Shown: positions 1,212 through 19,235 of the stretch, piece by piece
How positions within the stretch are numbered: position 1 is the first letter of the stretch
How the letters are laid out: each line of letters opens with the position of its first letter
Assembly: GCA_964610875.1 (NCBI GenBank)
Contig: CAZSWP010000054.1
Span: 1-19,235 of the forward strand
DNA: 19,235 bases
Direction: 5' to 3'
DNA from: an uncultured archaeon
GTDB lineage: Archaea; Asgardarchaeota; Thorarchaeia; Thorarchaeales; Thorarchaeaceae
Translations under genes and position numbers: made by a program
Notes under the pieces: generated by a model
What the model was told of the DNA's origin: nothing
Seen by the model: the letters and a program-made list of their open reading frames with translations, nothing else
Databases searched by the model: none

Positions 1212-2438
1212 ATGGCTACCAATAATAGAAGAACTATCACCCCTCCAAGAGTAACAATTCCCATTGGGCCACAGCATCCTGCATTAAAAGAGCCAGGGAT
1301 GTTTAAACTTACCCTTGAAGGAGAACTCATCGTAGATGCCTACGTTAACATTGGATACAATCACCGCTCCATTGAGAAGCTGGCGGAGACTAACACCCAC
1401 TTACAGAACCTGTATCTACTAGCACGAATCTGTGGCATCTGTTCTGCCACACATAATGGCAACTATGCACAGGCCGTAGAGTTCGCAGCTGAAGTAGAGA
1501 TTCCTGAGCGTGCAAGATTCCTCCGTACATTGGTCTGGGAACTTGAGCGAATCCATTCACATATTCTATGGCTTGGTGTTGCTTTTCACGAAGTCGGGTT
1601 TGATACTGCTTTCATGTACTCATGGAGAGACCGGGAAATCGTCATGGACATCCTCGAAGACATCTCTGGGAACAGGGTCAATTATGATTACAATACTATT
1701 GGTGGTGTTAGAAGAGACATCACTCCTGAGTTGATTGATAGCGTAATGAAACGTCTTGACAAACTTGAAGAGAGGATGATCTACTATCGCGATGTTGCAA
1801 TCTATGAAAAGACGTTCTGGAATAGAATCGATGGTGTTGGAATCCTTGAAAATGATATTGCAAAGAAGACTGGTGCCGTTGGTCCTACCGCACGAGGTAG
1901 CAACGTTCCCGTTGATGTCCGGTTCAACGATCCTACACAAGCGTATGTTGACATCGTAGAATCTGGTGAGTTCGAAATAGTCCTCTCTGATAGAAATGAC
2001 GTGGCAGGAAGAGCTGTCGTACGAGTTGTTGAAACCATAGAATCAATCAAGATGTGCAGATGGCTCTTACAGAACCTCCCAGAAGGCCCAATCCGAGAGC
2101 GAGTACGTCCAAGAATTCAACCAAATGAGGTGCTTGCAAGATATGAAGCACCACGTGGTGAAGTAATCCACTTTTTGGTGACAGATGGTTCACAGAATCC
2201 TGAGCGAATCAAGATTCGCGCTCCTACTCACGCAAACTGGGTGAGCATGCCTCACTGTCTGAGAGGTAATTATCTTGCAGATGCACCAATCATCCTGGCT
2301 GCAATCGATCCCTGTTTCAGCTGCACAGACAGAATGGTGCTAGTTGATGCTAAGGATGAATCAATGGAGCTTGTCACTTCTGATGAGCTCAGAACACGCG
2401 CCAACAAATGGCATGAGGTCAACCCACGAAGATTCTAG
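1212..2438 (+). CDS. mbhL: Group 4 (Mbh-type) membrane-bound [NiFe]-hydrogenase large catalytic subunit
   Basis: N-terminal GPQHP..EP, L1 motif RICGICSATH, ELERIHSH, EAPRGE, L2 motif DPCFSCTDR followed by a 34-aa C-terminal extension typical of protease-matured subunits. Confidence 0.92.
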   Translation: MATNNRRTITPPRVTIPIGPQHPALKEPGMFKLTLEGELIVDAYVNIGYNHRSIEKLAETNTHLQNLYLLARICGICSATHNGNYAQAVEFAAEVEIPERARFLRTLVWELERIHSHILWLGVAFHEVGFDTAFMYSWRDREIVMDILEDISGNRVNYDYNTIGGVRRDITPELIDSVMKRLDKLEERMIYYRDVAIYEKTFWNRIDGVGILENDIAKKTGAVGPTARGSNVPVDVRFNDPTQAYVDIVESGEFEIVLSDRNDVAGRAVVRVVETIESIKMCRWLLQNLPEGPIRERVRPRIQPNEVLARYEAPRGEVIHFLVTDGSQNPERIKIRAPTHANWVSMPHCLRGNYLADAPIILAAIDPCFSCTDRMVLVDAKDESMELVTSDELRTRANKWHEVNPRRF

Positions 2439-2450
2439 GGGGAATAATAG

Positions 2451-3542
2451 ATGCAGACCATCTTTGATTCGATTTTTAGCGTCTTTATCCAAGGACTTTA
2501 CGTTCTCATATTTCCTGGAATCTTTTTCATTACCTTTCTAGCACTATTTTGGGAATGGATTGACAGAAAGGTCTATGCACGGCTTCAGAATCGAATGGGG
2601 CCATTACATACCGGGTGGCGTGGCATCCTGCAGCCCTTGATGGACTTCTTAAAGCTGCTTGGTAAAGAAGATCTGACCCCCAGGAAGGCTAACAAAAGGG
2701 GATTTGCAGCTGTTCCAGTTGCAATGTTCGTTCTGAGTATAGTACTCTGTATGTTTCTACCCATTGTTGATATGGATGCTTCAACGCTTGGTGTCCAAGG
2801 GATTTTGAGCTTTGAAGGTGACTTGATTCTTATTCTATTCCTCACGACACTAATGGCAGTGTTAATTATTCTTGCAGGCTATTTCTCATCCAATCCATTT
2901 GGTCAGACCGGGGCAGCAAGAACAGGAATGCTTCTCATTAGTTTTGAGATTCCTCTTATTCTTGCTCTGGTGACTCCAGCTTTCATTACGCAAAGCCTAC
3001 GACTTTCTACTGTCGTGTATAATATGACCCAGCTCAATCCGATCTTTGCTTGGTTAATGCTCATTCCATTCGCTATCTACCTCATTGCTATTCAAGCTGA
3101 ACTAGAACGAATCCCATTTGACGTGAGCCATGCGGAGACCGAGATTGTTCACGGTTGGCAGGTAGAGTTCAGTGGTAAGAAGCTCGCAGTAATTCACATG
3201 GCTGAGGACATCATGTTGGTATTCAGTGCTGGAATGGCTGTAAGTCTGTTCTTAGGTGGTCCTTATCTCTTAGAATTCATACCATTACCCTTGTTCTCTG
3301 CAGAATTCGCCACACTCGTTGCAACAACATGGCTTGGTTGGATATACTATCCACTTGTCTTTGTCTTCAAATCTGCTCTTGTAATCTTGGTTCTAGCTAA
3401 CGTGCGTACAGTATTCGCACGCTGGCGGATCGATCAGATCGTTCATGCAGGCTGGAGATACATGGTACCAATTGCAATCCTGAACATCGTTCTCGTACAG
3501 GTCGCTTTGACCTATCTCTTTCCCCTACTTGGAGTAATCTAA
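2451..3542 (+). CDS. mbhM: Complex I subunit 1 (NuoH/MbhM-like) membrane subunit of the hydrogenase
   Basis: DRKVYARLQNRMGP, LQPLMDFLKLLGKE, AELERIPFD, AETEIVHGWQVEFSG, RWRIDQ; multiple TM segments. Confidence 0.92.
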   Translation: MQTIFDSIFSVFIQGLYVLIFPGIFFITFLALFWEWIDRKVYARLQNRMGPLHTGWRGILQPLMDFLKLLGKEDLTPRKANKRGFAAVPVAMFVLSIVLCMFLPIVDMDASTLGVQGILSFEGDLILILFLTTLMAVLIILAGYFSSNPFGQTGAARTGMLLISFEIPLILALVTPAFITQSLRLSTVVYNMTQLNPIFAWLMLIPFAIYLIAIQAELERIPFDVSHAETEIVHGWQVEFSGKKLAVIHMAEDIMLVFSAGMAVSLFLGGPYLLEFIPLPLFSAEFATLVATTWLGWIYYPLVFVFKSALVILVLANVRTVFARWRIDQIVHAGWRYMVPIAILNIVLVQVALTYLFPLLGVI

Positions 3543-3543
3543 C

Positions 3544-3921
3544 ATGCCCGATATTGGACTAGGTAAGATGGAACGCGAGCTACTGAAGAGTGCTACAAAG
3601 AAACAAGCAACAGTACTCTATCCTTTTACAAAAGAAGGACTCAATATTCCCGAAGGACTCCGCGGAAAATGGGTCTACAAGAACCCTGACAACTGTACTG
3701 GCTGTAAGATCTGTGAGAGGGTCTGTCCCAGTGGGGCGATAGAGATGATTGAATGTAGACCTGATGATGTGCAAACAAAGACTGGTTTCCGTCCTATCTG
3801 TTATTTTGATAGATGTATTCTCTGTGGGCAATGTGTAGAATCATGTCCGAGAAATGTGCTTGAACTCTCTGGTGAGTTCGAAATGGCATATCTCAGTCGT
3901 GATGATATGGTCATCGAATAG
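3544..3921 (+). CDS. mbhN: 2x[4Fe-4S] NuoI/MbhN-like hydrogenase subunit
   Basis: TVLYPF...RG, CTGCKICERVCP and CILCGQCVESCP; 1-nt gap after mbhM. Confidence 0.9.
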   Translation: MPDIGLGKMERELLKSATKKQATVLYPFTKEGLNIPEGLRGKWVYKNPDNCTGCKICERVCPSGAIEMIECRPDDVQTKTGFRPICYFDRCILCGQCVESCPRNVLELSGEFEMAYLSRDDMVIE

Positions 3922-4027: not shown

Positions 4028-4585
4028 TCATACCGCAGCTGCTTTTGCAGCTTTACCAGCCTCAATACCAAGTTCTAATGCTTTGAAGTTGGTCTCGACG
4101 AATCGCGGCCATCGGTCCTTGATTGCTTGTTGTAGACCTTCTAATGATACAATGCCTGTGATTGCAGCTAGAGCTCCGAGCATCACAACATTTGTGGACT
4201 GCTTCGTGCCCACATCCTGATCTGCAATTCTTGTTGCTGGTACCTTATAGACGGTGACCCCTTTTGGAAGGTCTCCTTCAATCTCAACAAGGTCTTCATC
4301 AATGATGAGTGTACCATTCTCTTTGAGTCCTTCAATATACTCCAGATAGGCAGCTCTACTCATGGCAATGAAAACATCTGGTGCTTGTACTTTTGGATAG
4401 TCGACCTCTTCGTCATCCACCACAATCTCGCTCTTGCTCGCTCCTCCACGAGCCTCGGGACCGTAGCTCTGGGTCTGAACACACTGCCTCTTCTCAACTA
4501 GTGACAGGGTCTCTCCAAGAACAACTGCCATAGTGACTATTCCTTGTCCTCCAAATCCCCCAATACGAATCTCAGTACGTGCCAT
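4028..4585 (-). CDS. korC: 2-oxoacid:ferredoxin oxidoreductase gamma subunit
   Basis: EIRIGGFGGQG, TQSYGPEARGG, NVVMLGAL. Confidence 0.93.
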   Translation of the reverse strand: MARTEIRIGGFGGQGIVTMAVVLGETLSLVEKRQCVQTQSYGPEARGGASKSEIVVDDEEVDYPKVQAPDVFIAMSRAAYLEYIEGLKENGTLIIDEDLVEIEGDLPKGVTVYKVPATRIADQDVGTKQSTNVVMLGALAAITGIVSLEGLQQAIKDRWPRFVETNFKALELGIEAGKAAKAAAV

Positions 4586-4589
4586 GTCC

Positions 4590-5432
4590 TCACATCCTGA
4601 CTTTGGAATGAGCTTCTTTGAGCACTGCTGTGTACTCGGGCTTTTCTATGTCTACAAACTCTCCGCAGACAATATGGGTATCATAGTCAAGTTCAGCTTC
4701 ATGAGGTGGTAACCCATTCTTGATCTCAGCAACTTCCAGGAGGTGTTTATGCATATCAAGCCCTGCACCAAGGCGGTTCATCCTTCCAAAAGCGGTTGGA
4801 CAGGCTCCGACAATCTCTACGAATGAGAACCCTTCCTTCGCAATACCCTTCTCAATGGACTTTGTCGCACGTCGTGCCTGTACAGCTGTCCATCGTGCCA
4901 CGAAGGTTGCACCTGAAGAGGCTGCTAGCTTGACGAGGTTGAAGGGATGCTCAATGTTGCCAATCGGCCGTGGACTGGTCTGTGAGAATCGCTCATGTTC
5001 AGTAGTGGGACCGAACTGACCGCCCGTCATGCCATAATTGAAATTATTAATGCATACAACTGTCATGTCGATGTTACGTCGGCATGCATGAATGAGATGG
5101 TTCCCACCAATTGCAGCGATGTCTCCGTCCCCCGAGATGACAACCACCTCTAGTTCTGGATTGGCGATCTTCACACCCTCTGCGAAGGCAATTGCACGCC
5201 CGTGAGTAGTATGGTAGGTTCCAGTCTTGAAGTATCCTGATGTTCTGCCAGTGCAGCCGATTCCAGATACTACGACTACCTTGTTAAAATCAAGTCCCAG
5301 ATTGTCAATGGCTCGTGCTACCATGTTCGTGACGATGCCAATTGAACAACCGGGGCAATATATCCATGGCTGTCTATCTTCTCTGATGTATTTCGCCATT
5401 GGATGTTTGAGGACGGGTACAGACTCTGTCAT
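4590..5432 (-). CDS. korB: 2-oxoacid:ferredoxin oxidoreductase beta subunit (TPP-binding)
   Basis: CPGC, SGIGC, HTTHGRA, GDGD...NN TPP motif, YGMTGGQ; RBS GAGGTG. Confidence 0.94.
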   Translation of the reverse strand: MTESVPVLKHPMAKYIREDRQPWIYCPGCSIGIVTNMVARAIDNLGLDFNKVVVVSGIGCTGRTSGYFKTGTYHTTHGRAIAFAEGVKIANPELEVVVISGDGDIAAIGGNHLIHACRRNIDMTVVCINNFNYGMTGGQFGPTTEHERFSQTSPRPIGNIEHPFNLVKLAASSGATFVARWTAVQARRATKSIEKGIAKEGFSFVEIVGACPTAFGRMNRLGAGLDMHKHLLEVAEIKNGLPPHEAELDYDTHIVCGEFVDIEKPEYTAVLKEAHSKVRM

Positions 5433-5470
5433 CTACACACCTCTTTGGTGAGGTCATGCGGTTCTGCAAG

Positions 5471-5484
5471 TTATCAAGATAAAA
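5471..5484 (-). promoter_or_regulatory. Putative internal promoter for korB-korC: TTTTAT TATA box overlapped by palindrome TTATC-N2-GATAA
   Basis: Lies in a 187-nt korA-korB spacer, about 50 nt upstream of the korB ATG. Confidence 0.45.
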
Positions 5485-5619
5485 GGCTTGTTGATGTGGC
5501 TAGGCTGAAGTTCGACACCGCAAGTGGAGGGGACAGGAATACGGAATACGGCATTAACATAGTTAATTGAAATTATTGATGAACGTCAGATTCCCAAATG
5601 TCACAAGACACTAAGCAAT

Positions 5620-6759
5620 CTATTTGATCTCATTGACTTCTCTGATCTTGTCGAGAATCTCATGTGGAAGCTGTGGCATACCCGCGGGTTTTGTCATTGA
5701 ATGTACTGGTGTCGTACCTGCCTCAGGCTTGACCATATAGTAGACCTGTCCGAGGTTCTGCTCAGGAACAATCAGGTGCTTTACCTGTCCTGCGAGGTCT
5801 GCGACTGCGTCTGCTGGGAATGGCCAGACTGTCTTTAGACGAAGCATACCCGCCTTAATGCCTTCTGCACGTGCATCCTTGATTGCTTTCTTTGCACTAC
5901 GAGAGGGAGTACCATATGCTATGACCCCAATCTCTGCATCATCGAGCATGAAACGCTCCAGGTCAATGATTTTGTCAGCATTCTTCAGAATCTTATCATT
6001 AAGCCGTGTGATCAACTCTATCTGGATATGTTCCTTGTCACTGGGATACCCGCGCTCATCATGAGTGAGTCCGGTGGCATAGAATTGATACTTACTTCCG
6101 AGAAGCGCCATTGGTGGCACAAGGTCATCATCTGCTTTGAACGGTAAATAATCTTCTGGCGGTCCTGAGGGTGTCTTTCTGTACTCTAGTTTCAAGTCCT
6201 TCTCATCTGGAATCACAAGCCTCTCACGCATATGTCCTACAGTTTCATCAGCAAGGATGAAGACTGGTGTCCGGTATCGTTCGGCCAAGTTGAATGCCTG
6301 AACTGTCTGGTCAAACATCTCTTGTACTGATGCTGGTGTGAGTGCAATAATCTGATAGTCTCCATGACTGCCCCATTTTGCCTGCATGATGTCTCCCTGC
6401 TGCCCTCTTGTAGGCTGTCCTGTACTTGGACCACCTCTCATGATGTTTACGAGAACAAGGGGGGTTTCAGTCATGACTGCCAGACCAACTGCTTCTAACA
6501 TCAGGCTAACACCGGGCCCAGATGTTGCGGTCATTGACTTGGTACCGGTCCATGATGCACCAATGACAGAGGTGATACTTGCTATCTCGTCTTCGTACTG
6601 CACATATGCTCCGCCTAGTTCTGGCATCCGTATGGACATCCATTCAGCTATCTCAGTAGCTGGCGTAATAGGATAACCTCCAAAATAGCGACAACCTGCG
6701 CTGAGAGCTCCTTCGGCGCATGCAATATCGCCCATTGTGAACATGACATGTTCTGGCAA
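5620..6759 (-). CDS. korA: 2-oxoacid:ferredoxin oxidoreductase alpha subunit (start re-assigned to TTG at 6759, 379 aa)
   Basis: GYPITP, EDE, TATSGPG, RGGPSTG. GAGGAGGA RBS in the korD tail precedes TTG, 4 nt after the korD stop. Confidence 0.93.
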   Translation of the reverse strand: MPEHVMFTMGDIACAEGALSAGCRYFGGYPITPATEIAEWMSIRMPELGGAYVQYEDEIASITSVIGASWTGTKSMTATSGPGVSLMLEAVGLAVMTETPLVLVNIMRGGPSTGQPTRGQQGDIMQAKWGSHGDYQIIALTPASVQEMFDQTVQAFNLAERYRTPVFILADETVGHMRERLVIPDEKDLKLEYRKTPSGPPEDYLPFKADDDLVPPMALLGSKYQFYATGLTHDERGYPSDKEHIQIELITRLNDKILKNADKIIDLERFMLDDAEIGVIAYGTPSRSAKKAIKDARAEGIKAGMLRLKTVWPFPADAVADLAGQVKHLIVPEQNLGQVYYMVKPEAGTTPVHSMTKPAGMPQLPHEILDKIREVNEIK

Positions 6760-6763
6760 TTGA

Positions 6764-7123
6764 CTATTCCTCCTCTTCTTTCTCTTCCTCGACACCATCT
6801 CCCATGAACTCGGGGATGAGTGTACCTTCTTCCATTGCTCCGTCTTTGTAGGCTTTCTCAGCCTCATCTTTGTCAGCGAGGAATATTGCCATATCAGGAC
6901 AGATTCTCTCACAGAATCCACAATTGACGCAGGCGTCAATATCGCATGTAGTTACAGGGTGGTAACCCTTTCTATTATACTTGGACATATCAAAGCACAG
7001 GACATTCTTTGGACAGAATGCTATGCAGAGTTCACACTGCTTACACTGTTCTTGAAGGATTACGAGGACTTTCTGTCTCGTTCGAGGGGGTTTTGGTGTG
7101 ATTGGCTTACGCACCGCTGACAT
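6764..7123 (-). CDS. korD: 2-oxoacid:ferredoxin oxidoreductase delta (ferredoxin) subunit with an acidic C-terminal tail
   Basis: CKQCELCIAFCP, KGYHP, CVNCGFCERICPDMAI. GGAG precedes ATG 7123 (alternative start 7138). Confidence 0.88.
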   Translation of the reverse strand: MSAVRKPITPKPPRTRQKVLVILQEQCKQCELCIAFCPKNVLCFDMSKYNRKGYHPVTTCDIDACVNCGFCERICPDMAIFLADKDEAEKAYKDGAMEEGTLIPEFMGDGVEEEKEEEE

Positions 7124-7365
7124 TGTTCTTTTCTCCATGCGTCCTGTTGGGAGCTGACACTACTCCCACGGTATTGGAGCATTACCAAGACCTCATTCTG
7201 TCTGGCTAGGTTGGCCTCATTACCTCACCTATTTTAGCCTTCCCGTGAAGGACCTATTTCAAAATACTGTCCATGAATGATTTATTACAGTCACTACCAT
7301 TGACGAACAGAGTTAAAGGCAAGTGGTGTCTCTCTGTTGTATCGCGAGTCGGAGGTGCAGAGGTC

Positions 7366-8833: not shown

Positions 8834-9730
8834 TCATTCTAGTATCTTGTCTAGGAATGGTTGAGTGCTAACAACATGCTTGTGTAGACCTAATTCATCT
8901 GGTTCTATTCCCATTGCAAGACCAAGTAGCTGTGTATAGTATATCACTGGAATCTGGTATTTCTTCTCACCAAGTTCTTTATTCAGTTGAGCTTGTGAAA
9001 CTTCGAATTGAAGATGACAGAACGAACAGACATTGATAACACAATCTACTCCAGCATCTATCATATTATCCAACTTTTCTTTTGCTATATCAACTGAAAC
9101 AGGCACATTTGACCCACGTACACCGCCACCAGCACCACAACACATGAATTTGTCACGATATTTCACACTCTCAACACCGGTAGCTTCAACAAGTTCATCC
9201 AAGAACGTATGACGCTCTGTTTGTTGCCATGGTCTTTGTTTGCTTGGTTTAAGTAAATGACAACCGTAGTGAACAGCTGTCTTTATGCCCTTTAGAGGTC
9301 TTTTTACGAGTTTCTTAATATTGTCAGGTCCGATTTCCATGATCACTTCAATGATGTGCTTTGCATCAACTTCAGCATTATACTTGAGACCAATCTCCTT
9401 GAAATGCTGTTGCACTTCTTTTAGTCTCTCTGGATGCCGATGAATTTCGTGTAATGCGTCTTTGAAGGTACCATAACAACCATTGCAACCGGTTATGATA
9501 TCATGTCCAGCATTCTCTGCTAGGGCGAGATTTCGCGACGCCAGTGTCAGCCAAGTAGGCTCATCAAATGATCTGATGACTCCTGGTGCAGGACAACAGC
9601 TTGCACCATCAAGTTCTTCGAGTACTATTCCCAGTTCAGGCAATACTCTTCTGATACTTTTCTCAATATTAGGAAACCTATTTGGCATCACACATCCAAG
9701 AAAGAACGAGTAGGTCTTCGCTTCTGTCAT
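8834..9730 (-). CDS. hdrB: Heterodisulfide reductase subunit B (paralog 1)
   Basis: Two CCG domains: FLGC...SCCPAPG...GCNGC and HYGCH...MCCGAGGG...CSFC. Alternative start GTG 9739. Confidence 0.95.
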   Translation of the reverse strand: MTEAKTYSFFLGCVMPNRFPNIEKSIRRVLPELGIVLEELDGASCCPAPGVIRSFDEPTWLTLASRNLALAENAGHDIITGCNGCYGTFKDALHEIHRHPERLKEVQQHFKEIGLKYNAEVDAKHIIEVIMEIGPDNIKKLVKRPLKGIKTAVHYGCHLLKPSKQRPWQQTERHTFLDELVEATGVESVKYRDKFMCCGAGGGVRGSNVPVSVDIAKEKLDNMIDAGVDCVINVCSFCHLQFEVSQAQLNKELGEKKYQIPVIYYTQLLGLAMGIEPDELGLHKHVVSTQPFLDKILE

Positions 9731-9735
9731 AGTAA

Positions 9736-10281
9736 TCACTTTTCTGCATCTTGTCCCTCGATGAGCTTATCGAAACCTGTGAGTTCCATCAGTTTCTTCA
9801 CATCATTCAGAGCATCTTTGCTTGCATGAACAGTAGGTGGGATCTCAGGAATACCAAGTTCTCTTCGCATCTCTTGGTTTGCTTCATCAAGGGGTACTGC
9901 ATGACCTGTAGCTAGTAGTTTCATTGATGCTTTCTTATGTTGGGGGAGCATGAATCCTTCGTCCACAGCCATATTTCGCATAATGATTATAGCATCTGTC
10001 ACCTTGATTTGCCTTGGGCATCGTTCAAGACAAGTCAGACAAGTTGCACAGAGCCAGAGGTCTGGTGATGATAGCACTTCTTCCTTTAATCCGAGAAGTG
10101 CTTTCCTGATTAACTCCCGGGTTCGGAATGCGGTCCGTCTTCCACTAGGACAGACGCTTGAACAGGTCCCACATTGAATACAGGTTCTGATTCGGTCTGC
10201 TCCCGCTTCGACAATCTTGTCTACAAATTCGGGGTCAATCTTGTCAGTTTCTATTGTTTCACGAGAGATTGAGTCTGGCAT
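9736..10281 (-). CDS. hdrC: Heterodisulfide reductase subunit C (paralog 1; start re-assigned to ATG 10281)
   Basis: CIQCGTCSSVCP, LWLCATCLTCLERCP, TGHAVP; AGAGGT RBS before ATG 10281. Confidence 0.94.
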   Translation of the reverse strand: MPDSISRETIETDKIDPEFVDKIVEAGADRIRTCIQCGTCSSVCPSGRRTAFRTRELIRKALLGLKEEVLSSPDLWLCATCLTCLERCPRQIKVTDAIIIMRNMAVDEGFMLPQHKKASMKLLATGHAVPLDEANQEMRRELGIPEIPPTVHASKDALNDVKKLMELTGFDKLIEGQDAEK

Positions 10282-10332
10282 TCTATAACCTCTTGAGGAT
10301 GTCTGACGATAGCGGCTCACACGATACGTACG

Positions 10333-10338
10333 TTATAA
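10333..10338 (-). promoter_or_regulatory. TATA box (TTATAA) for hdrC1-hdrB1
   Basis: About 55 nt upstream of ATG 10281, just downstream of a T6 run that follows the radical SAM gene. Confidence 0.45.
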
Positions 10339-10354
10339 GAGTGGCGTTTCCTAC

Positions 10355-10360
10355 AAAAAA
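10355..10360 (-). terminator. Oligo-T archaeal terminator candidate for the radical SAM gene
   Basis: T6 on the minus strand about 30 nt after the stop at 10390. Confidence 0.35.
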
Positions 10361-10389
10361 CCAAATGAAGATATCAGTCATCATCCGTT

Positions 10390-11466
10390 TCAGTCATAAC
10401 AATACTCGGCAGTTGACAAAAGATGGGTATTGCCAAGTCTCACATTCGTGAGCCCTGAATCCTTAGCCAAAGCCAGAGCGTCCTCTGCGTGATTTCGACT
10501 AGTTCTTGGCAGGTCTCTCATCAAATGATGTGGATAGAATCCCAACAGTGCTGTTGGTATTGAAGAATCGCAGTAAGAGATGAAGTCTGCGATCCTGCCA
10601 ACCTCGTCGAGGCCTACATATCCCGGAACAAGCAATATACTCGCAACAAGAAACTCATTCTCTCTCCCTAGCCCTCTTCTTGCGAGCTTACGGAAGTTGT
10701 TAATCACGGTCTGATTGCTGACATTCGTGAGTGCCTTATAGAGGCTTGGAGTCACTGCTTTCAAATCAAATTTCATTGTCCCTTTGCTCTTTATGACAAT
10801 GTCTGCAATTTGGTCAAGCCATTTTGCTGATATGTTTCCATTAGTTTCGTAACAGACTCTAAGGCCTTGTTCATCTAGAATTTTTGATGTTTCCAAAGAA
10901 TGCCATGGATTACACGAGGGGTCTCCACCAAAATAACATGCACAGGCGGTATAATCATCTGCAACATTAGCCAGTTCCTGTGGTGTCATCAGAGGTTTAC
11001 CCTCTCTCATCATATCCTGGTAGCTTATGTTCTGACAAAAGAGGCAATCTGAATTACATGACCCATAGAATATAGCCAAGTTTTTCAACCGTGTCTTACC
11101 AAATCCCAATTCTGTTTCATCCCTGACAGGACAGACCCAATCTGCGACACAGTTTGTTGGTAATGGATCAAAATACCATCTAACTGGTGCCTTCTCGCCA
11201 TATTTCTTCACAATTCTACCATCAGCAACATAACGTAAATTACAGAATCCAGATACTCCTTCAGACAATCGACAGTGGTTTCCACAGTCGCTACAGACAA
11301 CCTCGCCTTGATCTGGAACTGCTGCTGGTAATCTGGCTTGGTTGCGTGAATGTCTATGTGCGCTTCTTGTTATCTCAGAATCTACCTTACCCTGACTGTA
11401 GCATTCACCACAGTGAACCAAGGATCTTGTTACTATTCGGTCAGGATGGATTGAACATCTCATCAT
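10390..11466 (-). CDS. Radical SAM protein (PFL-activase/AmrS-like) with Cys-rich N-terminal extension; probable start 11466 or 11463
   Basis: CNSDCLFCQN (CxxxCxxC), FGGDP, ETNG, KFDLKA, LLVPGYV, LLGFYP, NVRLGN; N-terminal CSIH..CGEC and CSDCGNHC..GFC. Confidence 0.85.
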   Translation of the reverse strand: MMRCSIHPDRIVTRSLVHCGECYSQGKVDSEITRSAHRHSRNQARLPAAVPDQGEVVCSDCGNHCRLSEGVSGFCNLRYVADGRIVKKYGEKAPVRWYFDPLPTNCVADWVCPVRDETELGFGKTRLKNLAIFYGSCNSDCLFCQNISYQDMMREGKPLMTPQELANVADDYTACACYFGGDPSCNPWHSLETSKILDEQGLRVCYETNGNISAKWLDQIADIVIKSKGTMKFDLKAVTPSLYKALTNVSNQTVINNFRKLARRGLGRENEFLVASILLVPGYVGLDEVGRIADFISYCDSSIPTALLGFYPHHLMRDLPRTSRNHAEDALALAKDSGLTNVRLGNTHLLSTAEYCYD

Positions 11467-11531
11467 GCTAAGCAATGTAGTTGTCTCAATCAATCTTTTG
11501 CTTTTTGACAACGATACCAATTGGTAACTGA

Positions 11532-11537
11532 TTTAAG
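11532..11537 (+). promoter_or_regulatory. TATA box candidate (TTTAAG) for hdrC2-hdrB2 in the divergent intergenic region
   Basis: About 40 nt upstream of ATG 11576. Confidence 0.4.
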
Positions 11538-11575
11538 GTTGAAAATAGTGCGAACTTCACAGGTCGGTACGGACT

Positions 11576-12118
11576 ATGACGAGTGCAGAAGAAAAGGCAC
11601 CCATTGACATTGATACAGTTGATCACGACTTCGTTTCCATGATCAAAAAGACTGGAGGTCCAAACATTCAGTCATGCTACCAGTGCGGGACGTGTAGTGG
11701 TAGTTGTCCTGCTGGAACTCGTACTAACTATCTTGTTCGTGGAATTATACGGAAAGCATTGCTCGGTCTGAAAGAACAGTGCATCTCCGCTCCAGAGTTA
11801 TGGTACTGCACGACATGTTATACCTGTACAGACAGATGTCCTCAAGACGTTAAACCAACGGATGTCATCAAGGCCATAAGAAATGTTGCGGTCGCTGAAG
11901 GCTACATGCTAGAGCCACATCAAAAGGTTGCTCAGAAAGTACTTGAGACTGGTCATGCAGTCCCCCTCGATAAGGAGTCTTGGGAAAAGCTACGCGAGAA
12001 GGTATTTCTCCCAGCTAAACCGCCCAATGCAAGTAGTCATCCTGAAGCTATTGAAGAGATAAAGAAGATTGCAGCAAAGACCGGTTTTGATAAGCTTGTA
12101 GAAGACAAGGAGGAGTAA
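11576..12118 (+). CDS. hdrC: Heterodisulfide reductase subunit C (paralog 2)
   Basis: CYQCGTCSGSCP, LWYCTTCYTCTDRCP, TGHAVP. Confidence 0.95.
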   Translation: MTSAEEKAPIDIDTVDHDFVSMIKKTGGPNIQSCYQCGTCSGSCPAGTRTNYLVRGIIRKALLGLKEQCISAPELWYCTTCYTCTDRCPQDVKPTDVIKAIRNVAVAEGYMLEPHQKVAQKVLETGHAVPLDKESWEKLREKVFLPAKPPNASSHPEAIEEIKKIAAKTGFDKLVEDKEE

Positions 12119-12121
12119 TAG

Positions 12122-13036
12122 ATGGCAAAACCGAAGTTTATTCATTTTCTGGGATGTATCATCCCCCATAGATATCCTAGTATTCAGAAAGCCACAGAAA
12201 TAGTCTTTGAAGACCTTGATATGGAGCTACTCGATATGGAGGGTGCTTCTTGTTGCCCTGCTCCTGGAGTCTTTGGTTCCTTTGATAGAATAACTTGGGC
12301 TTCGATTGCTGCAAGGAACCTCACCATCGCTGAGGAGGCTAAGGCTAGCATAACCACGGGATGCAACGGTTGTTTTGCCAGTCTTTGGGATGCAAATTAT
12401 GAACTCAAACATGATGACGAGCTCCGTGATGCTGTCAACGAAGCACTTGCTGAAGTAGACCGTGAGTTCAAAGGCACAATAGAAGTGACTCACTATGTTG
12501 ACGCACTCTATAACACAGCGGGCCTAGAGAAAATCCGCAAACATGTCACACGACCGTTCAAAGATGTAAAAATGGCGCTTCACCCAGGTTGCCACTGGAT
12601 GAGGCCTAAGATACTGAAACAGAAAGACGAGTCTGAGAGACCTCACATCTTCAGAGAACTCTGTGAAACCTCCGGTGCCACATATGTCCCTTATAAGGAC
12701 GAGCTCATGTGCTGTGGTGCTGGTGGAGCTGTGCGAACTGCTGACATCAAGGTTGCGCTTGATTTCACCAAGCAGAAGTTCGATAGTATTGAGGATGCCG
12801 GGGGTGCTGATATGATTATTACACCCTGTCCGTTCTGTGAACTCCAGCTTGACCTTGGACAGGTTGAGATCAAGAAACATTTCGATGAGGAATATGTATA
12901 CGATGTACTCCATGTCACAGAGCTGCTAGCCTTGGCATTTGGACATGAACCTGAGGAGTTTGGACTCGCAACTCACTTACAATACATGCAGAGAAAGAGC
13001 GAGCCCGCATGGGAGAAAATTGGAATTGCTCATTGA
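12122..13036 (+). CDS. hdrB: Heterodisulfide reductase subunit B (paralog 2)
   Basis: FLGC...SCCPAPG...GCNGC and HPGCH...MCCGAGG...CPFC; GGAGGAG RBS. Confidence 0.95.
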   Translation: MAKPKFIHFLGCIIPHRYPSIQKATEIVFEDLDMELLDMEGASCCPAPGVFGSFDRITWASIAARNLTIAEEAKASITTGCNGCFASLWDANYELKHDDELRDAVNEALAEVDREFKGTIEVTHYVDALYNTAGLEKIRKHVTRPFKDVKMALHPGCHWMRPKILKQKDESERPHIFRELCETSGATYVPYKDELMCCGAGGAVRTADIKVALDFTKQKFDSIEDAGGADMIITPCPFCELQLDLGQVEIKKHFDEEYVYDVLHVTELLALAFGHEPEEFGLATHLQYMQRKSEPAWEKIGIAH

Positions 13037-13469: not shown

Positions 13470-14999
13470 ATGTTGACGACATTGGAAAATAGATTGACAC
13501 GATGGGCAGTTCTGGTGCTATTTCTTGTCACACTCATTTTCTTTACTTACATGTATGTGTCTGGCATCGCATGGAATATTCTAGAACCACCTGAATTCTC
13601 TTTCTGGCTGACTATTCTCACAATCATTTTGACATTGTCCGCTGGCACTGTGGCTACGTACTCTTTCGTTTCATTCTCGCAATTCAAGGAAATGCGAAGC
13701 TTGATGCTTCTCTTGTTGGGTGCGAACCTCGTTCTCTGGGCATTTCTCTATCTTATGACTCATCCCGCCTCTGCTGAGTGGGCTGTGACCTTCTCTGATA
13801 GGGATAGGAATCGGACTCTGGGTATGGCTCTTGTTTTGATTATTGTTCCGTGTATTATTCTTGGATCCTTTTCTGGTGATGTGAAACCCAATCGACCTAG
13901 TGTCGCTCTCCTCTTGGCTTGGGGTGGAATGTTGATGCCTATAATATCACTATGGCTGTTCTTCAGTGAAGAACCTGTATTTCTCATGACCTCACCAGAG
14001 GGGGGTATTGAGGGATTGACCATTGAGGGTATGATAATATCCTTTGGATTCTTGATTTCCCAAATAATAGCTGGACTCAGGTTAATTCAGAAATGGCGGG
14101 AAACACAAGATATGCTTGATTTTGCCCTTCTTCTTGCTATTCTCGTGTGGATTACTGGAACATTCTTCATAATTATACTATGGGATCCACTCCAAGTGGC
14201 TGAATTGATGTGGGTTGGAAGTATCATTTTGGGCATGCTACAGATCTCGGTCGTTCAGTTCATGACTTCGATTATTGAACCACATAGAACACTTGAGGAG
14301 ATTGTTAAGGTGCGTACAGAAGAACTTGACTTATCAAAACAAGAGAGTGAGTTCTACCTCAATCTCTGGACACATAAGATGGGAAATCTATTACAAGGGC
14401 TGATTACATATCTCGATCTTCTAGAAAATGTCGCCTCTCAGAGTAAGGAGGATATCAATACCAGAGGCGCAGCACGTGATCTAAGTAGAGAGGCCATATT
14501 AGTTAATCACCAGGTCCTCCAGCTCTCCAGAATAAAGGAACGTCTTCAAGAAGAACTGTACATTGTAGAAGTTGTAGATGCAATTCAACAGGCTATTAAG
14601 ACTGCTAAGGAACACCTTGGACCAGGTGCTTTCAAAATAGAGATGGATGACAAAGGACCTTGTACTATTTTTGCTGACGATCTTCTCGAATTGGTCTTCC
14701 TGAGTACAATCCTATTCCATATGAGGAGCATCTCATCTGAACCTCTTGAATTGTCAATCAATGTTAGAAATGATGATGATATTTGCTCAGTGGCAGTAAT
14801 CTCTGATGGTCTGAACATCTCAAAAAATGTGTCTGCATATCTTCAAGGCAACATAATAATTGGTGATCTTTCTCTAGATCTAGATTTGTTCACAATGAAA
14901 CTCCTAATGAGTAGATATGATGGATGGATAGAATGTTTCAGAGATGAAACAAGAAATAGAACTCATTGCATTTTGAAATTTTCAACCGTTTCGAAATAG
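13470..14999 (+). CDS. Polytopic membrane sensor with degenerate histidine-kinase domain (probable pseudokinase)
   Basis: About 8 TM segments, coiled coil LEEIVKVRTEEL, H-box-like EFYLNLWTHKMGNLLQ; HATPase-like region lacking N-box Asn and G-box glycines. Confidence 0.75.
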   Translation: MLTTLENRLTRWAVLVLFLVTLIFFTYMYVSGIAWNILEPPEFSFWLTILTIILTLSAGTVATYSFVSFSQFKEMRSLMLLLLGANLVLWAFLYLMTHPASAEWAVTFSDRDRNRTLGMALVLIIVPCIILGSFSGDVKPNRPSVALLLAWGGMLMPIISLWLFFSEEPVFLMTSPEGGIEGLTIEGMIISFGFLISQIIAGLRLIQKWRETQDMLDFALLLAILVWITGTFFIIILWDPLQVAELMWVGSIILGMLQISVVQFMTSIIEPHRTLEEIVKVRTEELDLSKQESEFYLNLWTHKMGNLLQGLITYLDLLENVASQSKEDINTRGAARDLSREAILVNHQVLQLSRIKERLQEELYIVEVVDAIQQAIKTAKEHLGPGAFKIEMDDKGPCTIFADDLLELVFLSTILFHMRSISSEPLELSINVRNDDDICSVAVISDGLNISKNVSAYLQGNIIIGDLSLDLDLFTMKLLMSRYDGWIECFRDETRNRTHCILKFSTVSK

Positions 15000-15748: not shown

Positions 15749-16318
15749 TCAGTTTTTCATCTTACTCTCGCCGTAAAACAACTCTCCAAGTCGTTTCATA
15801 GTGTCACGGACACAGTCCTTTTTCCCACTTATCTGTAGATGGCGGTTTCCGTCAAGATGAATAAGCACACCACAGTCCTCAGCAATCTCGCTGATTATTT
15901 CAACGGGAATATCCTCGGGCAATTTAATTCTGAAAAAGCTGACATCCTTTTCACGAGGAAGGTCCGAGATTGGAACTTGTGAGTCTAATGAAGGTGGAGG
16001 TGTTTTGCCCTGTAAGGCATCATGAAATTTTGTTTCCCATTCCTTACGATATTCAACTTCGTTGCTTTCTTCTGCCCACTGCATCATGGTCTTACTGATA
16101 CTTTGAATTTTGACTTCAATATCATCTCGGAGTCTGACATCTGCGCCTTCTTGAACACTGATATCTCCCTTGAAAGATCTCAAATATTCTATACTCATCT
16201 TCAGGTTTCTGAGGTCTGCATAGGCCAGATCTGGAATGAATCTGCCCTTTTCTTCTAGTGCACCGAGTAAATCATTTAGGACCATCCAAGCTGCATGAAT
16301 TCCCTCAAGAGATGCCAT
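15749..16318 (-). CDS. DUF2096-like archaeal protein
   Basis: W.VL.DLL..L..KG..IP....DLR N-terminus and R..LPE.I..E.I.EI.E..GV.I......I.G.K..V C-terminus, recognised from memory of the family; 4 nt downstream of hdrA with RBS GGAGTGA. Confidence 0.65.
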   Translation of the reverse strand: MASLEGIHAAWMVLNDLLGALEEKGRFIPDLAYADLRNLKMSIEYLRSFKGDISVQEGADVRLRDDIEVKIQSISKTMMQWAEESNEVEYRKEWETKFHDALQGKTPPPSLDSQVPISDLPREKDVSFFRIKLPEDIPVEIISEIAEDCGVLIHLDGNRHLQISGKKDCVRDTMKRLGELFYGESKMKN

Positions 16319-16322
16319 CTAC

Positions 16323-19235
16323 TCACTCCCTGAGCATCTCTTCAATCTGATTCAAGAAACTTTTCTCACGCCACCAGCGAAGGTCTCGTGCTCCTGTTGG
16401 GCAGATTGCAACACATGCTCCACACCCCTCGCACTTTATATCATCAGTGACACTCTTCTTCACACCTGGTTCTACTTCAACCATTGATACTGCATCATAA
16501 GGACAAATCTCAGAGTAATGACAGAGATCACACCCAACACAGAGTTCCTCGTCGACCTCTGCAGTCACAAGCTCAATCTCAACTTTACCCAGATTGAGTG
16601 GACCTACTGCTGCACTGGCAGCTCCTCGTGCCTGGTTTATTGAGTCCTGCACACTCTTAGCATATGTGACACCAAGAAAGACACCTGGTACTGTGGTTTC
16701 AACTGGGCGGAATTTCATGTGCATCTCTAAGAGAAATCCATCTTGTCCTCGGTTAATTCCCATCGCTCGCACAAACTCGTTTACATCATGAGGTGCTTCA
16801 AGTGCGACTGCTAATACTACCATGTCTGAACGAATCTTGAAGGTTTCTTGAGAAAGAGTGTCGTACACGGTCACGATTGCTTCATCTGAGTCGGGAGATT
16901 TCTCCACAGTGACCGGATTCTCTCTGACCCATCGAAGATATGAAACACCATGTTGTCGATTTTCCCTCCACATCTCCTCAAGACCATCGGCATAGGGTCG
17001 AATATGTTCCTTGTAGGCTGAGAATATCTTGATGTCAGGAAACATCTCTCTAAGCTCTTTCTGCATGGTAATTACTGCAGAACAGCATACGCGAGAGCAA
17101 TATCTATTGCCTTCCCCAGGATTTTGTCTTGAACCTACACAATGAATGAAGACCGGGTTCTTAGGTGCTTTCTTAATCTCTCCTGCTTTGAGTTTCTTTT
17201 CCAAATCAAGAGTGGTCATGACACCTGGCACCTCACCCCATCCATACTCTCCTTTCTTCGAATCATATGTATCACAACCTACAGCAATGACCATGGTGCC
17301 AATACGATAGATCTCTTCTTCTCCTGATTCACTGTTTTTCACTGAAATATCATAATTTCCATAAGACCCATCACGTTTGACTACTTTTGAATTCAATAGC
17401 ACTCGAATTCGCTTCTCTTTCTGAACACGTTTTACCAAATCATCAACTAAGTCTTGAGCATTGTCCATATGAGGGAAGATTCTATAGAGTTCGTTCATTC
17501 GACCTCCGAGGACTGGTTCCTTCTCAATGAGCAACACTTCATAGCCCTTCTTTGCAATATCGAGTGCAGCAGTCATACCTGATACACCGCCACCGACTAC
17601 CATTGTAACTGGAGTGACCTCTACTATCTTAGTTGGGACATCTTCGTTATTGATAGCTTTTGCAACCCCTGAGCGGATCATATCTTGAGCTTTCTCTTGT
17701 CGCTCATCTCGGGATGCATTCTTATGAACAAGTGTCAATTGCTCTCTCAGTCCTACTGGCCCAACTAGGTAATATCCCGAAAGGCCTGCAGCTTCAAGAG
17801 ATCTGCGAAATGTATCTTGATGTTGAAGCGGTGAGCAGGAGCCAACTACCACTCTATTCAGTTTATGTTCCTTAATGGCTTCTGTGACAAATTCTTGTCC
17901 TGGGTCAGAGCACATGAAGATGTAGTCCGTACTATAGACAACATTGGGTAAATCGCTAGCCCACTCTGCAAGACCCGGTGCATCAATCTCATTTCCAATG
18001 ATACCTCCACAGTGACAGATGAACACACCCACACGAGGCTTATCACCTAGTTCAGCTGGTGGTATCTCTTCCTTCTCTAACGGGATAGGTACTGGGAGAA
18101 TCGATTGAGCTGCCATTGCGGCTCCTTTGCCTTCATTGACGGTGTCTGTGCCATCTTTTGGACCATGGACACAACCTGCAACATAGATTCCGGGTCGTGT
18201 TGTTTCAATACCCATCGTATTTGCGTGTTTTTCCTTCACCCAATCTTTTTCATCCAATTCAATACCTAGTGTTTGAGCTAGTTCTTCATGTCCTTCATTG
18301 GGTCTAAAACTGGCATTAAGGACAACCATTGATATATCTTCGAGCTCTGTTATCTCTCCAGTTTCAGTGTCTTCCAACTTGATTGAGAGATTGTGCGTAT
18401 CAACATCTTCGTATATTTCAGCTATTCTTCCTCGAATGAAATTGATGCCTTGATTCTTCTCACTATCCCAGAGGAACTCTTCCAGAGATTTTCCCGCGGT
18501 ACGCATATCCATATAGGTGTAAATTATCTCACAGTGATCCTCGGGATAATGCATTCGTGTCACTTGTGCCAATTTCAGTCCAAAAGAACAGCAGACCTTA
18601 TTGCAATGATCACTGTATCCCTGAATGTTCTCTCTGACATCCCTGCTTCCTACACAATTGACAAAGACAATTCGTTCAGGCTCCTTTCCGTCAGACGGCC
18701 GGACCATATGTGCATCTGTTGGACCGGTTGGATGAGTCTGTCTGTCATATTCAAGTGATGTGACAACATTTGGAAATATCCCATATCCATACTCTGCATA
18801 GTCTAGAGGTTTGTATTCTTGGAATCCTGTGGCTACAATAATAGAACCAACATTCAGGTCGTATGTCTTGTCTTCATCACCATACATGATACAATCTTGT
18901 GGACAAACTGCCGCACAGGTCCCGCAGCCAATACAAGAATCTCTGTCGATGGTAGCTATGAGTGGAATCTGCTGTGGAAAGTTCATGTAGATTGCCTTTC
19001 TCATGGAGAGCCCGAAATCATATTCATTGGGCACTTCAATTGGACAGGACTGTATGCAAAGCTGACATCCTGTACATTTGTCTTCGTTCACATACCTTGC
19101 TTTCTTTCTAACTGTGACTGTAAAATCACCCGGTTCTCCGGTTACCTTCTCCACTTCGGAGAGTGCATGAATCTGAATGTTTGGGTGTTTTCCTACAAAT
19201 GATGTCAAGGGTGTCATGACACATGCAGAGCATTC
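16323..19235 (-). CDS. hdrA: Tandem (two-module) heterodisulfide reductase subunit A, 5'-partial (frame runs off the window through ...ECSACVMTP)
   Basis: Two CVGSR...C...CC clusters, inserted 2x[4Fe-4S] domain, GCVHGPKD, a second-module start RVGVFICHCGG, VVGGGVSG FAD motif, C-terminal 2x[4Fe-4S]. Confidence 0.93.
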   Translation of the reverse strand, partial: ECSACVMTPLTSFVGKHPNIQIHALSEVEKVTGEPGDFTVTVRKKARYVNEDKCTGCQLCIQSCPIEVPNEYDFGLSMRKAIYMNFPQQIPLIATIDRDSCIGCGTCAAVCPQDCIMYGDEDKTYDLNVGSIIVATGFQEYKPLDYAEYGYGIFPNVVTSLEYDRQTHPTGPTDAHMVRPSDGKEPERIVFVNCVGSRDVRENIQGYSDHCNKVCCSFGLKLAQVTRMHYPEDHCEIIYTYMDMRTAGKSLEEFLWDSEKNQGINFIRGRIAEIYEDVDTHNLSIKLEDTETGEITELEDISMVVLNASFRPNEGHEELAQTLGIELDEKDWVKEKHANTMGIETTRPGIYVAGCVHGPKDGTDTVNEGKGAAMAAQSILPVPIPLEKEEIPPAELGDKPRVGVFICHCGGIIGNEIDAPGLAEWASDLPNVVYSTDYIFMCSDPGQEFVTEAIKEHKLNRVVVGSCSPLQHQDTFRRSLEAAGLSGYYLVGPVGLREQLTLVHKNASRDERQEKAQDMIRSGVAKAINNEDVPTKIVEVTPVTMVVGGGVSGMTAALDIAKKGYEVLLIEKEPVLGGRMNELYRIFPHMDNAQDLVDDLVKRVQKEKRIRVLLNSKVVKRDGSYGNYDISVKNSESGEEEIYRIGTMVIAVGCDTYDSKKGEYGWGEVPGVMTTLDLEKKLKAGEIKKAPKNPVFIHCVGSRQNPGEGNRYCSRVCCSAVITMQKELREMFPDIKIFSAYKEHIRPYADGLEEMWRENRQHGVSYLRWVRENPVTVEKSPDSDEAIVTVYDTLSQETFKIRSDMVVLAVALEAPHDVNEFVRAMGINRGQDGFLLEMHMKFRPVETTVPGVFLGVTYAKSVQDSINQARGAASAAVGPLNLGKVEIELVTAEVDEELCVGCDLCHYSEICPYDAVSMVEVEPGVKKSVTDDIKCEGCGACVAICPTGARDLRWWREKSFLNQIEEMLRE

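Follow-up and report, generated by a model that had tools for sequence, protein, structure and literature searches.

An open reading frame (ORF) at the edge of contig CAZSWP010000054.1, from the Thorarchaeaceae genome assembly GCA_964610875.1, raises the question of whether a protein that joins two HdrA modules in one chain bifurcates electrons at one flavin or at two. Flavin-based electron bifurcation of the HdrA type lies at the heart of energy conservation in anaerobes, and Asgard genomes encode many Hdr paralogs. The literature disagrees on whether there are one or two bifurcation sites, a point for which a survey of homologs provides numbers. The contig, designated C54 in an assembly of 3.75 Mb and 124 contigs, was analysed over its entire length of 19,235 nucleotides, referred to here as the window. 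The favoured reading, with a probability of about 0.78, is that of a type II (fused) HdrA of Thorarchaeota, in which two anciently diverged paralogs form a pseudo-heterodimer within one chain and a single bifurcating flavin resides in module 1.

The fused hdrA-hdrA' ORF lies on the minus strand at positions 16323-19235, as do all features of it given below, and translates as a single open frame of 970 codons plus a TGA stop codon (16323-16325), its 5' end being open at the contig end (19235). Residues are numbered from the first one at the contig edge, the motif ECSAC being residues 1-5. Comparison by phmmer with five methanogen HdrA structures gave best E-values of 2.4e-178 to 1.9e-152 and divided the protein into three segments, residues 1-325 matching HdrA 193-510, 399-594 matching HdrA 3-196, and 800-968 matching HdrA 483-650, and a hidden Markov model of the thioredoxin-reductase-like (TrxR) core found two such domains. 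Module 1 (18081-19235, residues 1-385), which corresponds to HdrA 193-510, is a TrxR-like flavin adenine dinucleotide (FAD) core with an inserted ferredoxin; alignment and the architecture survey described below place neither an N-terminal Fe-S domain nor a C-terminal ferredoxin in it, and no ferredoxin was found between residue 350 and the linker. Within ECSAC, Cys2 and Cys5 (19221-19232) form the CxxC pair equivalent to HdrA Cys194 and Cys197, and the inserted 2x[4Fe-4S] ferredoxin (18864-19100, residues ~46-124; Pfam Fer4 at 53-116) carries the motifs CTGCQLCIQSC and CIGCGTCAAVC at residues ~54-111. The TrxR-domain [4Fe-4S] ligands of this module, which are residues Cys194, 211, 215 and 216 of the window protein, lie together with Lys221 at 18573-18656 (CVGSR...HCNKVCCSFGLK), and the Lys221 codon (18573-18575) and Asp164 in LEYDR (18744-18746) fall on the K409 and E356 positions of HdrA. 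A Pro-rich inter-module linker (18042-18104, residues ~378-398), with no secondary structure in the structural model and no ferredoxin motif, leads into module 2.

Module 2 opens, in the middle of the protein, with the N-terminal Fe-S domain of HdrA (17616-18041, residues 399-540; Cys407, 409, 442 and 467), which matches HdrA 3-196 and shows the motif VFICHCG...MCS...GSCSP, its cysteines being invariant in the ortholog alignment A1. The TrxR-like FAD core that follows (16581-17615, residues 541-885) has a GGGVSG motif backed by Pfam Pyr_redox_2 and NAD_binding_8 matches and its own [4Fe-4S] ligands Cys699, 713, 717 and 718; the CxxC pair and the inserted ferredoxin are both absent, with FPHMDNAQD (17451-17477) standing in place of the FPxxDCxxC element and aligning to FPTNDCSIC of HdrA. 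At the K409 position, five residues past the CC pair, module 2 has Thr723 (17067-17069, in YCSRVCCSAVIT), and its translation gives Glu679 in LDLEK (17199-17201) at the E356 position. The protein ends in a C-terminal 2x[4Fe-4S] ferredoxin (16326-16580, residues 886-970; Pfam Fer4_7 at 899-949), in a region matching HdrA 483-650. The CVGSR...C...CC-type [4Fe-4S] motif is present in both modules, its cysteines being invariant in A1 and kept in 98-103 of the 103 distant representatives defined below. The motifs and codons named for both modules in the initial annotation of this DNA were all recovered by translation in their places, and the alignment to solved HdrA confirmed the register, counting along the alignment to 5odc making Cys5 equivalent to Cys197, Asp164 to Glu356 and Lys221 to Lys409.

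Full-length Thorarchaeota orthologs are 1032-1036 residues long and 75-81% identical to the window protein, and judged by their lengths, ~64 codons are missing from the window ORF. The missing 5' end was sought across the genome with the N-termini of three paralogs and no match was found at any contig end; its content is therefore taken from the orthologs, ~60 of which carry only ~64 residues ahead of ECSAC, consisting of a short leader and GxGxxG...FP. Module 1 thus starts at its FAD (Rossmann) fold and lacks the N-terminal Fe-S domain, which answers the question, raised in the initial annotation, of whether it has a CHCG domain of its own.

The same division of parts was surveyed in a close set of 116 fused homologs of at least 900 residues and in a distant set of 103 representatives of 50%-identity clusters. 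The complementary layout is found in 113 of the 116 close homologs: module 1, without a preceding N-terminal domain, has an insert with 8-9 cysteines and is followed by a linker of ~51 residues without ferredoxin, and module 2 has an N-terminal domain with 4-5 cysteines, no insert, and a C-terminal ferredoxin with 8 cysteines. The exact complementary layout is likewise present in 76 of the 103 distant representatives, most of the others being truncated or having extra inserts. Relatives occur in at least 595 species genomes according to a scan of species genomes, with full-length matches in Bathyarchaeia, Thermoplasmatota, Methanomassiliicoccales, Archaeoglobi, Methanoperedens, ANME-2 (ANME, anaerobic methanotrophic archaea), Desulfobacterota, Chloroflexota and others. 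Fused HdrA proteins of Archaea and Bacteria are predominantly of this complementary kind, and the complementary domain loss that the initial annotation had read from one sequence is thus systematic rather than random. Its claim that this exact division of parts is new did not survive, the arrangement having been described before (PMC9012536, PMC12054007) and being visible in the cryo-electron microscopy structure of BamE, a subunit of the class II benzoyl-CoA reductase of Geobacter metallireducens (bioRxiv 10.64898/2026.04.10.717634). Candidates among the distant representatives for fused proteins with the N-terminal-domain module first were also considered and rejected: P0227, P0236, P0246 and P0251 are canonical HdrA with a GltD-like insert, and P0124 and P0092 have a different, non-complementary division of parts. 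The latter two, of ~1085 residues, with P0092 labelled Nezhaarchaeota, are another kind of fused HdrA that is rare among the representatives.

Conservation of individual residues is asymmetric between the modules. Cysteine occupies both the Cys194 and Cys197 positions of module 1 in 115 of the 116 close homologs and never occurs at the corresponding positions of module 2, in either the 116 close or the 103 distant homologs. Lys409 is kept in module 1 of 115/116 close and 96/103 distant homologs; in module 2 the figures are 25/116 and 66/103, the residue otherwise being T, A, M, E, S, R or Q. Throughout the Thorarchaeota clade the module 2 Lys is replaced by Thr or Ala, and the Loki/Hel/Hod relatives in A1 also lack it, one sequence excepted. 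Judged from these alignments, loss of the module 2 Lys is lineage-specific and recurrent and not a general rule. At the E356 position, module 1 has Asp in 59 and Glu in 56 of the 116 close homologs, with Asp in the Thorarchaeota clade and Glu elsewhere, and module 2 has Glu in 101 of them. The four TrxR [4Fe-4S] cysteines of module 2 are kept in 99-103 of the 103 distant representatives. This contrast, with Lys409 near-invariant in the first module but under relaxed constraint in the second, is consistent with one flavin that bifurcates and one that does not.

A tree built on the ~250-residue FAD core, with 41 cores sampled per module, places 40 of the 41 module 2 cores in one clade that also contains the separately encoded module 2 proteins of contig C28 (Shimodaira-Hasegawa-like approximate likelihood ratio test, SH-aLRT, 98) and 40 of the 41 module 1 cores in another clade together with the C28 module 1 genes (SH-aLRT 90). 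The subfamily of Thor/Loki/Hel/Hod sequences has 100% support for both halves of the protein. Split genes are interspersed with fused ones, and the halves represent old, separately descended HdrA paralogs. The same division of parts is also kept as separate adjacent genes at three loci of this genome, beside hdrCB and mvhD: on C28 at 11121-12458 with 9376-11211, where stop and start nearly abut, on C28 at 50880-53630 with 47747-49516, and on C16 at 52689-53993 with 53923-56163, the last pair being similar in layout but an independent duplication in the tree. The halves of the C28 pairs cluster with the corresponding modules of the fused proteins; they differ from the window protein in that the C28 module 2 proteins retain the Lys. 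Unlike the window gene, the split pairs are operonic with hdrCB and mvhD, plus a [NiFe] hydrogenase or a GltD-like insert. The gene at C28 50880-53630 (minus strand) encodes a module 1-type HdrA of 917 residues with a ~470-residue GltD/NfnB-like NAD(P)H module inside the inserted ferredoxin ('type III'-like), and its operon also holds hdrCB, a module 2-type hdrA, mvhD and a [NiFe] hydrogenase.

A single-chain AlphaFold model, computed with an alignment of 17 rows, has a mean predicted local distance difference test (pLDDT) score of 81 and a predicted template modelling (TM) score of 0.79, and its best Foldseek matches in the PDB are the HdrA structures 5odc, 8rvu and 7bkb (probability 1.00, target TM score 0.71-0.75), a comparison made with single PDB chains that is silent on how the modules pack. 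Their packing was addressed by a two-chain model of module 1 and module 2, which scored 0.82 against 0.00 for the best control, with three runs agreeing on at least 92% of contacts and a partner pLDDT of at least 87; the mark for this score is attained by 58 of 80 complexes with solved structures, as against 2 of 110 mismatched pairs. In the modelled interface, module 1 residues 5-16 face module 2 residues 409-412, 442-445 and 467-468, which would put the Cys197 equivalent of module 1 beside the N-terminal cluster cysteines of module 2, and symmetric pairs are formed by 243-253/743-754 and 362-378/860-877. The modules are therefore predicted to pack as a pseudo-twofold pair resembling the HdrA homodimer, as the initial annotation had expected, though the pass may stem from resemblance to solved HdrA homodimers and indicates likeness, not binding.

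The canonical HdrA homodimer of MvhAGD-HdrABC complexes (PDB 5odc, 8rvu, 7bkb, 9sfi) shares with the window protein the four domain types, the FAD core, the TrxR [4Fe-4S] motif, K409, Cys197 and the fold, and its dimer interface resembles the predicted inter-module interface. It consists, however, of two identical chains, whereas the window protein is one chain holding each domain type except the FAD core once, and thus a single complete cofactor path. In methanogen Hdr complexes and BamE, the entry point is formed by the C-terminal ferredoxin and an MvhD-type adaptor, from which electrons pass to the FAD. The high-potential electron then exits by the TrxR-domain cluster to HdrC/HdrB (BamD in BamE), and the low-potential electron passes from the FAD to the Cys/Sec197 pair (Sec, selenocysteine), the N-terminal-domain cluster and the inserted ferredoxin (PMC9012536; bioRxiv 10.64898/2026.04.10.717634; PMC13518236, which treats the Cys/Sec197 relay). 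K409 contacts N5 of the FAD and E356 positions K409, and both are thought to mark bifurcating HdrA (PMC12054007).

Transferred by analogy to the window protein, this scheme would have the chain fold back on itself as a pseudo-heterodimer, with the sole electron-bifurcating flavin and both output routes in module 1. The Cys pair, the Lys and the inserted ferredoxin occur in module 1 alone, while module 2 is the sole source of the entry ferredoxin and the N-terminal cluster, which leaves one complete path, centred on the FAD of module 1. Electrons would enter at the C-terminal ferredoxin of module 2, and the N-terminal-domain cluster of module 2, completed or reached by the Cys pair of module 1, would serve as first low-potential relay toward the inserted ferredoxin. 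The proposal of one complete cofactor path with bifurcating FAD and outputs in module 1 can thus be retained from the initial annotation, but not its assignment of the N-terminal cluster to the input arm, since published structures put this cluster on the low-potential output; module 2 would then contribute the input ferredoxin as well as the first relay of the output. The module 2 flavin, with no Cys pair and with Thr723 for Lys, most likely does not bifurcate and would, as in BamE, have a structural role or at most act as a simple relay.

BamE is among the closest known parallels: it, too, is an HdrA dimer fused into a single chain, its parts follow each other in the same order, and its C-terminal ferredoxin is the electron entry. 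It has the early pair Cys59-Cys62 and, in its first TrxR core, Lys280 at N5 of the bifurcating FAD; the second core holds Gln768 and a non-bifurcating FAD judged to be mainly structural (bioRxiv 10.64898/2026.04.10.717634). Going by the description in that paper, Cys59/Cys62, Lys280 and Gln768 would correspond to residues ~66/69, ~285 and ~787 of the full-length orthologs of the window protein. The latter differs in having Thr rather than Gln in the second core, in having no Sec, and in having no Bam genes alongside. A non-bifurcating second flavin, one of two options given in the initial annotation, is compatible both with the relaxation of the module 2 Lys and with the Lys280/Gln768 pair of BamE.

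Fused and complementary HdrA proteins are known from several other sources. Complementary HdrA occurs in ANME in tandem (HdrA5/6, 12/13) or fused (HdrA3/4) form, and a fused HdrA is known from Moorella (Chadwick 2022, PMC9012536); type II HdrA, a fusion of A6 and A12, was named in 2025 from methane- and alkane-metabolising archaea (PMC12054007), and duplicated HdrA fusions in Thor- and Lokiarchaeota were catalogued by PMC11237513. For complementary HdrA, a heterodimer or a self-partnering chain has been proposed (PMC9012536, PMC12054007). The 'type II_N' and 'type II_C' cores are old paralogs whose fused and split forms interleave (PMC12054007), and the tree and survey presented here reproduce the placing of the two TrxR cores in separate N- and C-module clades. 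The window protein also shares with these proteins an N-terminal domain and C-terminal ferredoxin on one side that complement Cys197 on the other, but it puts the Cys197 module first, whereas HdrA3/4 puts the N-terminal-domain module first (PMC9012536). Further differences are that its host is a non-methanogenic Asgard archaeon, that its clade lacks the module 2 K409 and has Asp at the module 1 E356 position, and that the gene is followed by a DUF2096 gene and has no MvhD/FdhB/molybdopterin cluster. Fused complementary HdrA is thus already published and widespread, and the window gene, a clean Asgard example of an asymmetric single-chain HdrA, opens no new kind of system; what is little known here is the link to DUF2096.

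Several observations weigh against a single bifurcating flavin in module 1 or loosen the comparison on which it draws. GGGVSG, a Glu at the E356 site and the full set of four TrxR [4Fe-4S] ligands are retained in module 2, which argues that its flavin and cluster are under selection for something. The Lys is kept in module 2 of most distant homologs, and both flavins of type II HdrA may bifurcate, as proposed in PMC12054007. The Asp at the E356 position of module 1 throughout the Thorarchaeota clade departs from the canonical Lys/Glu pair, and the FAD motif of module 1 is known in this genome only through the orthologs, as the 5' end of the gene is off the contig. There is no mvhD beside the fused hdrA. 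At 31-41% identity, the hdrCB pairs of the window are not orthologs of those next to the orthologous fusions, which makes the partners of the fused HdrA uncertain. Across the hundreds of homologs surveyed, the constraint expected of a bifurcating site is seen in module 1 alone, and this favours a single bifurcating FAD of the BamE type, at least for this clade.

The DUF2096 gene (15749-16318, minus strand; 189 residues) starts 4 nt past the hdrA stop and is probably co-transcribed with the fused hdrA. The protein combines a four-helix N-domain with a KH-like C-domain, contains only 2 Cys and is the sole copy in the genome. DUF2096 stands directly behind the fused hdrA in all four Thorarchaeota ortholog loci examined (L002, L003/L004, L006) and at that position in none of ~79 distant fused-hdrA loci; in the lokiarchaeal locus L005, mvhD occupies its place, inside a large hdr cluster. 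This cluster (L005 6505-20802, Lokiarchaeota, RDOG01000001.1) is one co-oriented run of a 1168-residue fused HdrA-MvhD, a 1021-residue relative of the window protein, mvhD, a split module 1/module 2-MvhD pair, a 734-residue Fe-S protein and hdrCB, which amounts to three double-HdrA units (six FAD cores) beside one HdrBC. An unlikely extension of these observations is that the Thorarchaeota fused HdrA is a distinct enzyme, with the flavin site of module 2 repurposed (Thr or Ala in place of Lys), the Lys partner of module 1 tuned differently (Asp instead of Glu), and a new subunit, adaptor or regulator in the form of the translationally coupled DUF2096 protein; if true, this would give DUF2096 its first function and Asgard archaea a specific bifurcating complex.

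If the flavin and [4Fe-4S] cluster of module 2, instead of being purely structural, had been repurposed as a plain electron relay or as a further substrate site, at which for instance another HdrBC-like unit or a different donor could dock, this would explain why its four cluster cysteines are kept in nearly all representatives and why Glu679 is widely retained, and the genome does hold several HdrBC pairs, two of them in the window. This is nevertheless quite improbable, as DUF2096 is the only partner conserved beside the orthologs and the authors of the BamE structure favour a structural role for its second TrxR domain (bioRxiv 10.64898/2026.04.10.717634). Equally hard to credit is that both flavins are catalytic and form two bifurcation (or confurcation) sites in one chain, as has been proposed for type II HdrA generally. 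K409 and E356 are indeed kept in both cores of 75% of type II sequences (PMC12054007), module 2 of the window protein retains GxGxxG, the E356-equivalent Glu and the TrxR [4Fe-4S] ligands, and two hdrCB pairs lie within the window. In the window protein and the whole Thorarchaeota clade, however, the module 2 Lys is Thr or Ala; the Cys194/Cys197 pair never occurs in module 2; a single N-terminal cluster domain and a single inserted ferredoxin leave no path for a second low-potential branch; and the second FAD of the similarly arranged BamE is not at a branching point (bioRxiv 10.64898/2026.04.10.717634). That the fusion arose through an error of assembly or gene calling, or that it is a decaying pseudogene derived from two neighbouring hdrA genes, has a negligible chance of being true: the ORF is truncated by the contig end and one error could fuse a pair such as that on C28, whose halves nearly abut stop to start, but ~60 independent orthologs of 1032-1036 residues from many Thorarchaeota assemblies share the continuous frame and linker, which refutes an artefact, and every cofactor ligand is intact and both halves co-evolve as one clade.

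By analogy with the known complexes, the fused HdrA would have an HdrBC partner, and the window holds two hdrC-hdrB pairs, 3-7 kb from the fused hdrA and in other transcription units. One pair, with hdrC-like (11576-12118) and hdrB-like (12122-13036) genes on the plus strand carrying Pfam Fer4_8 and CCG domains, is convergent with the fused hdrA and a possible partner, although its products are only 31-37% identical to the HdrBC beside the orthologs. The other has hdrC-like (9736-10320) and hdrB-like (8834-9739) genes on the minus strand, assigned by Pfam. The two pairs (8834-13036) are divergent, ~40% identical to each other, and bracket a radical-SAM gene (10390-11520, minus strand). As they are not orthologous to the pairs beside the orthologs, they were rejected as proven partners of the fused HdrA. 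With five two-CCG HdrB genes in the genome to match its five HdrA units, the two pairs of the window may be the partners of the fused HdrA and of the canonical HdrA encoded on contig C12. No FlpD/MvhD domain was found in the fused HdrA or other window proteins; mvhD homologs are present elsewhere in the genome. Membership in the class II benzoyl-CoA reductases was rejected for want of Bam neighbours: the window has no BamB/AOR, BamC, BamD or BamGHI and no AOR-family or HydBC-like ORF among its ORFs, and near the orthologs there are no AOR-family/HydBC-like genes save for a 79-residue AFOR_N fragment far upstream in L002.

Further genes of the window include an ORF of 509 residues (13470-14999, plus strand) without a Pfam match, which lies between the hdrCB pair and the DUF2096-hdrA unit and has no counterpart there in L002 or L003. 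At 1212-3921 the window encodes complex-I/group-4 [NiFe]-hydrogenase-like subunits (NuoD-, NuoH- and NuoI-like) and at 4028-7138 a four-subunit 2-oxoacid:ferredoxin oxidoreductase, a neighbourhood in which enzymes linked to ferredoxin abound and which fits ferredoxin-linked metabolism.

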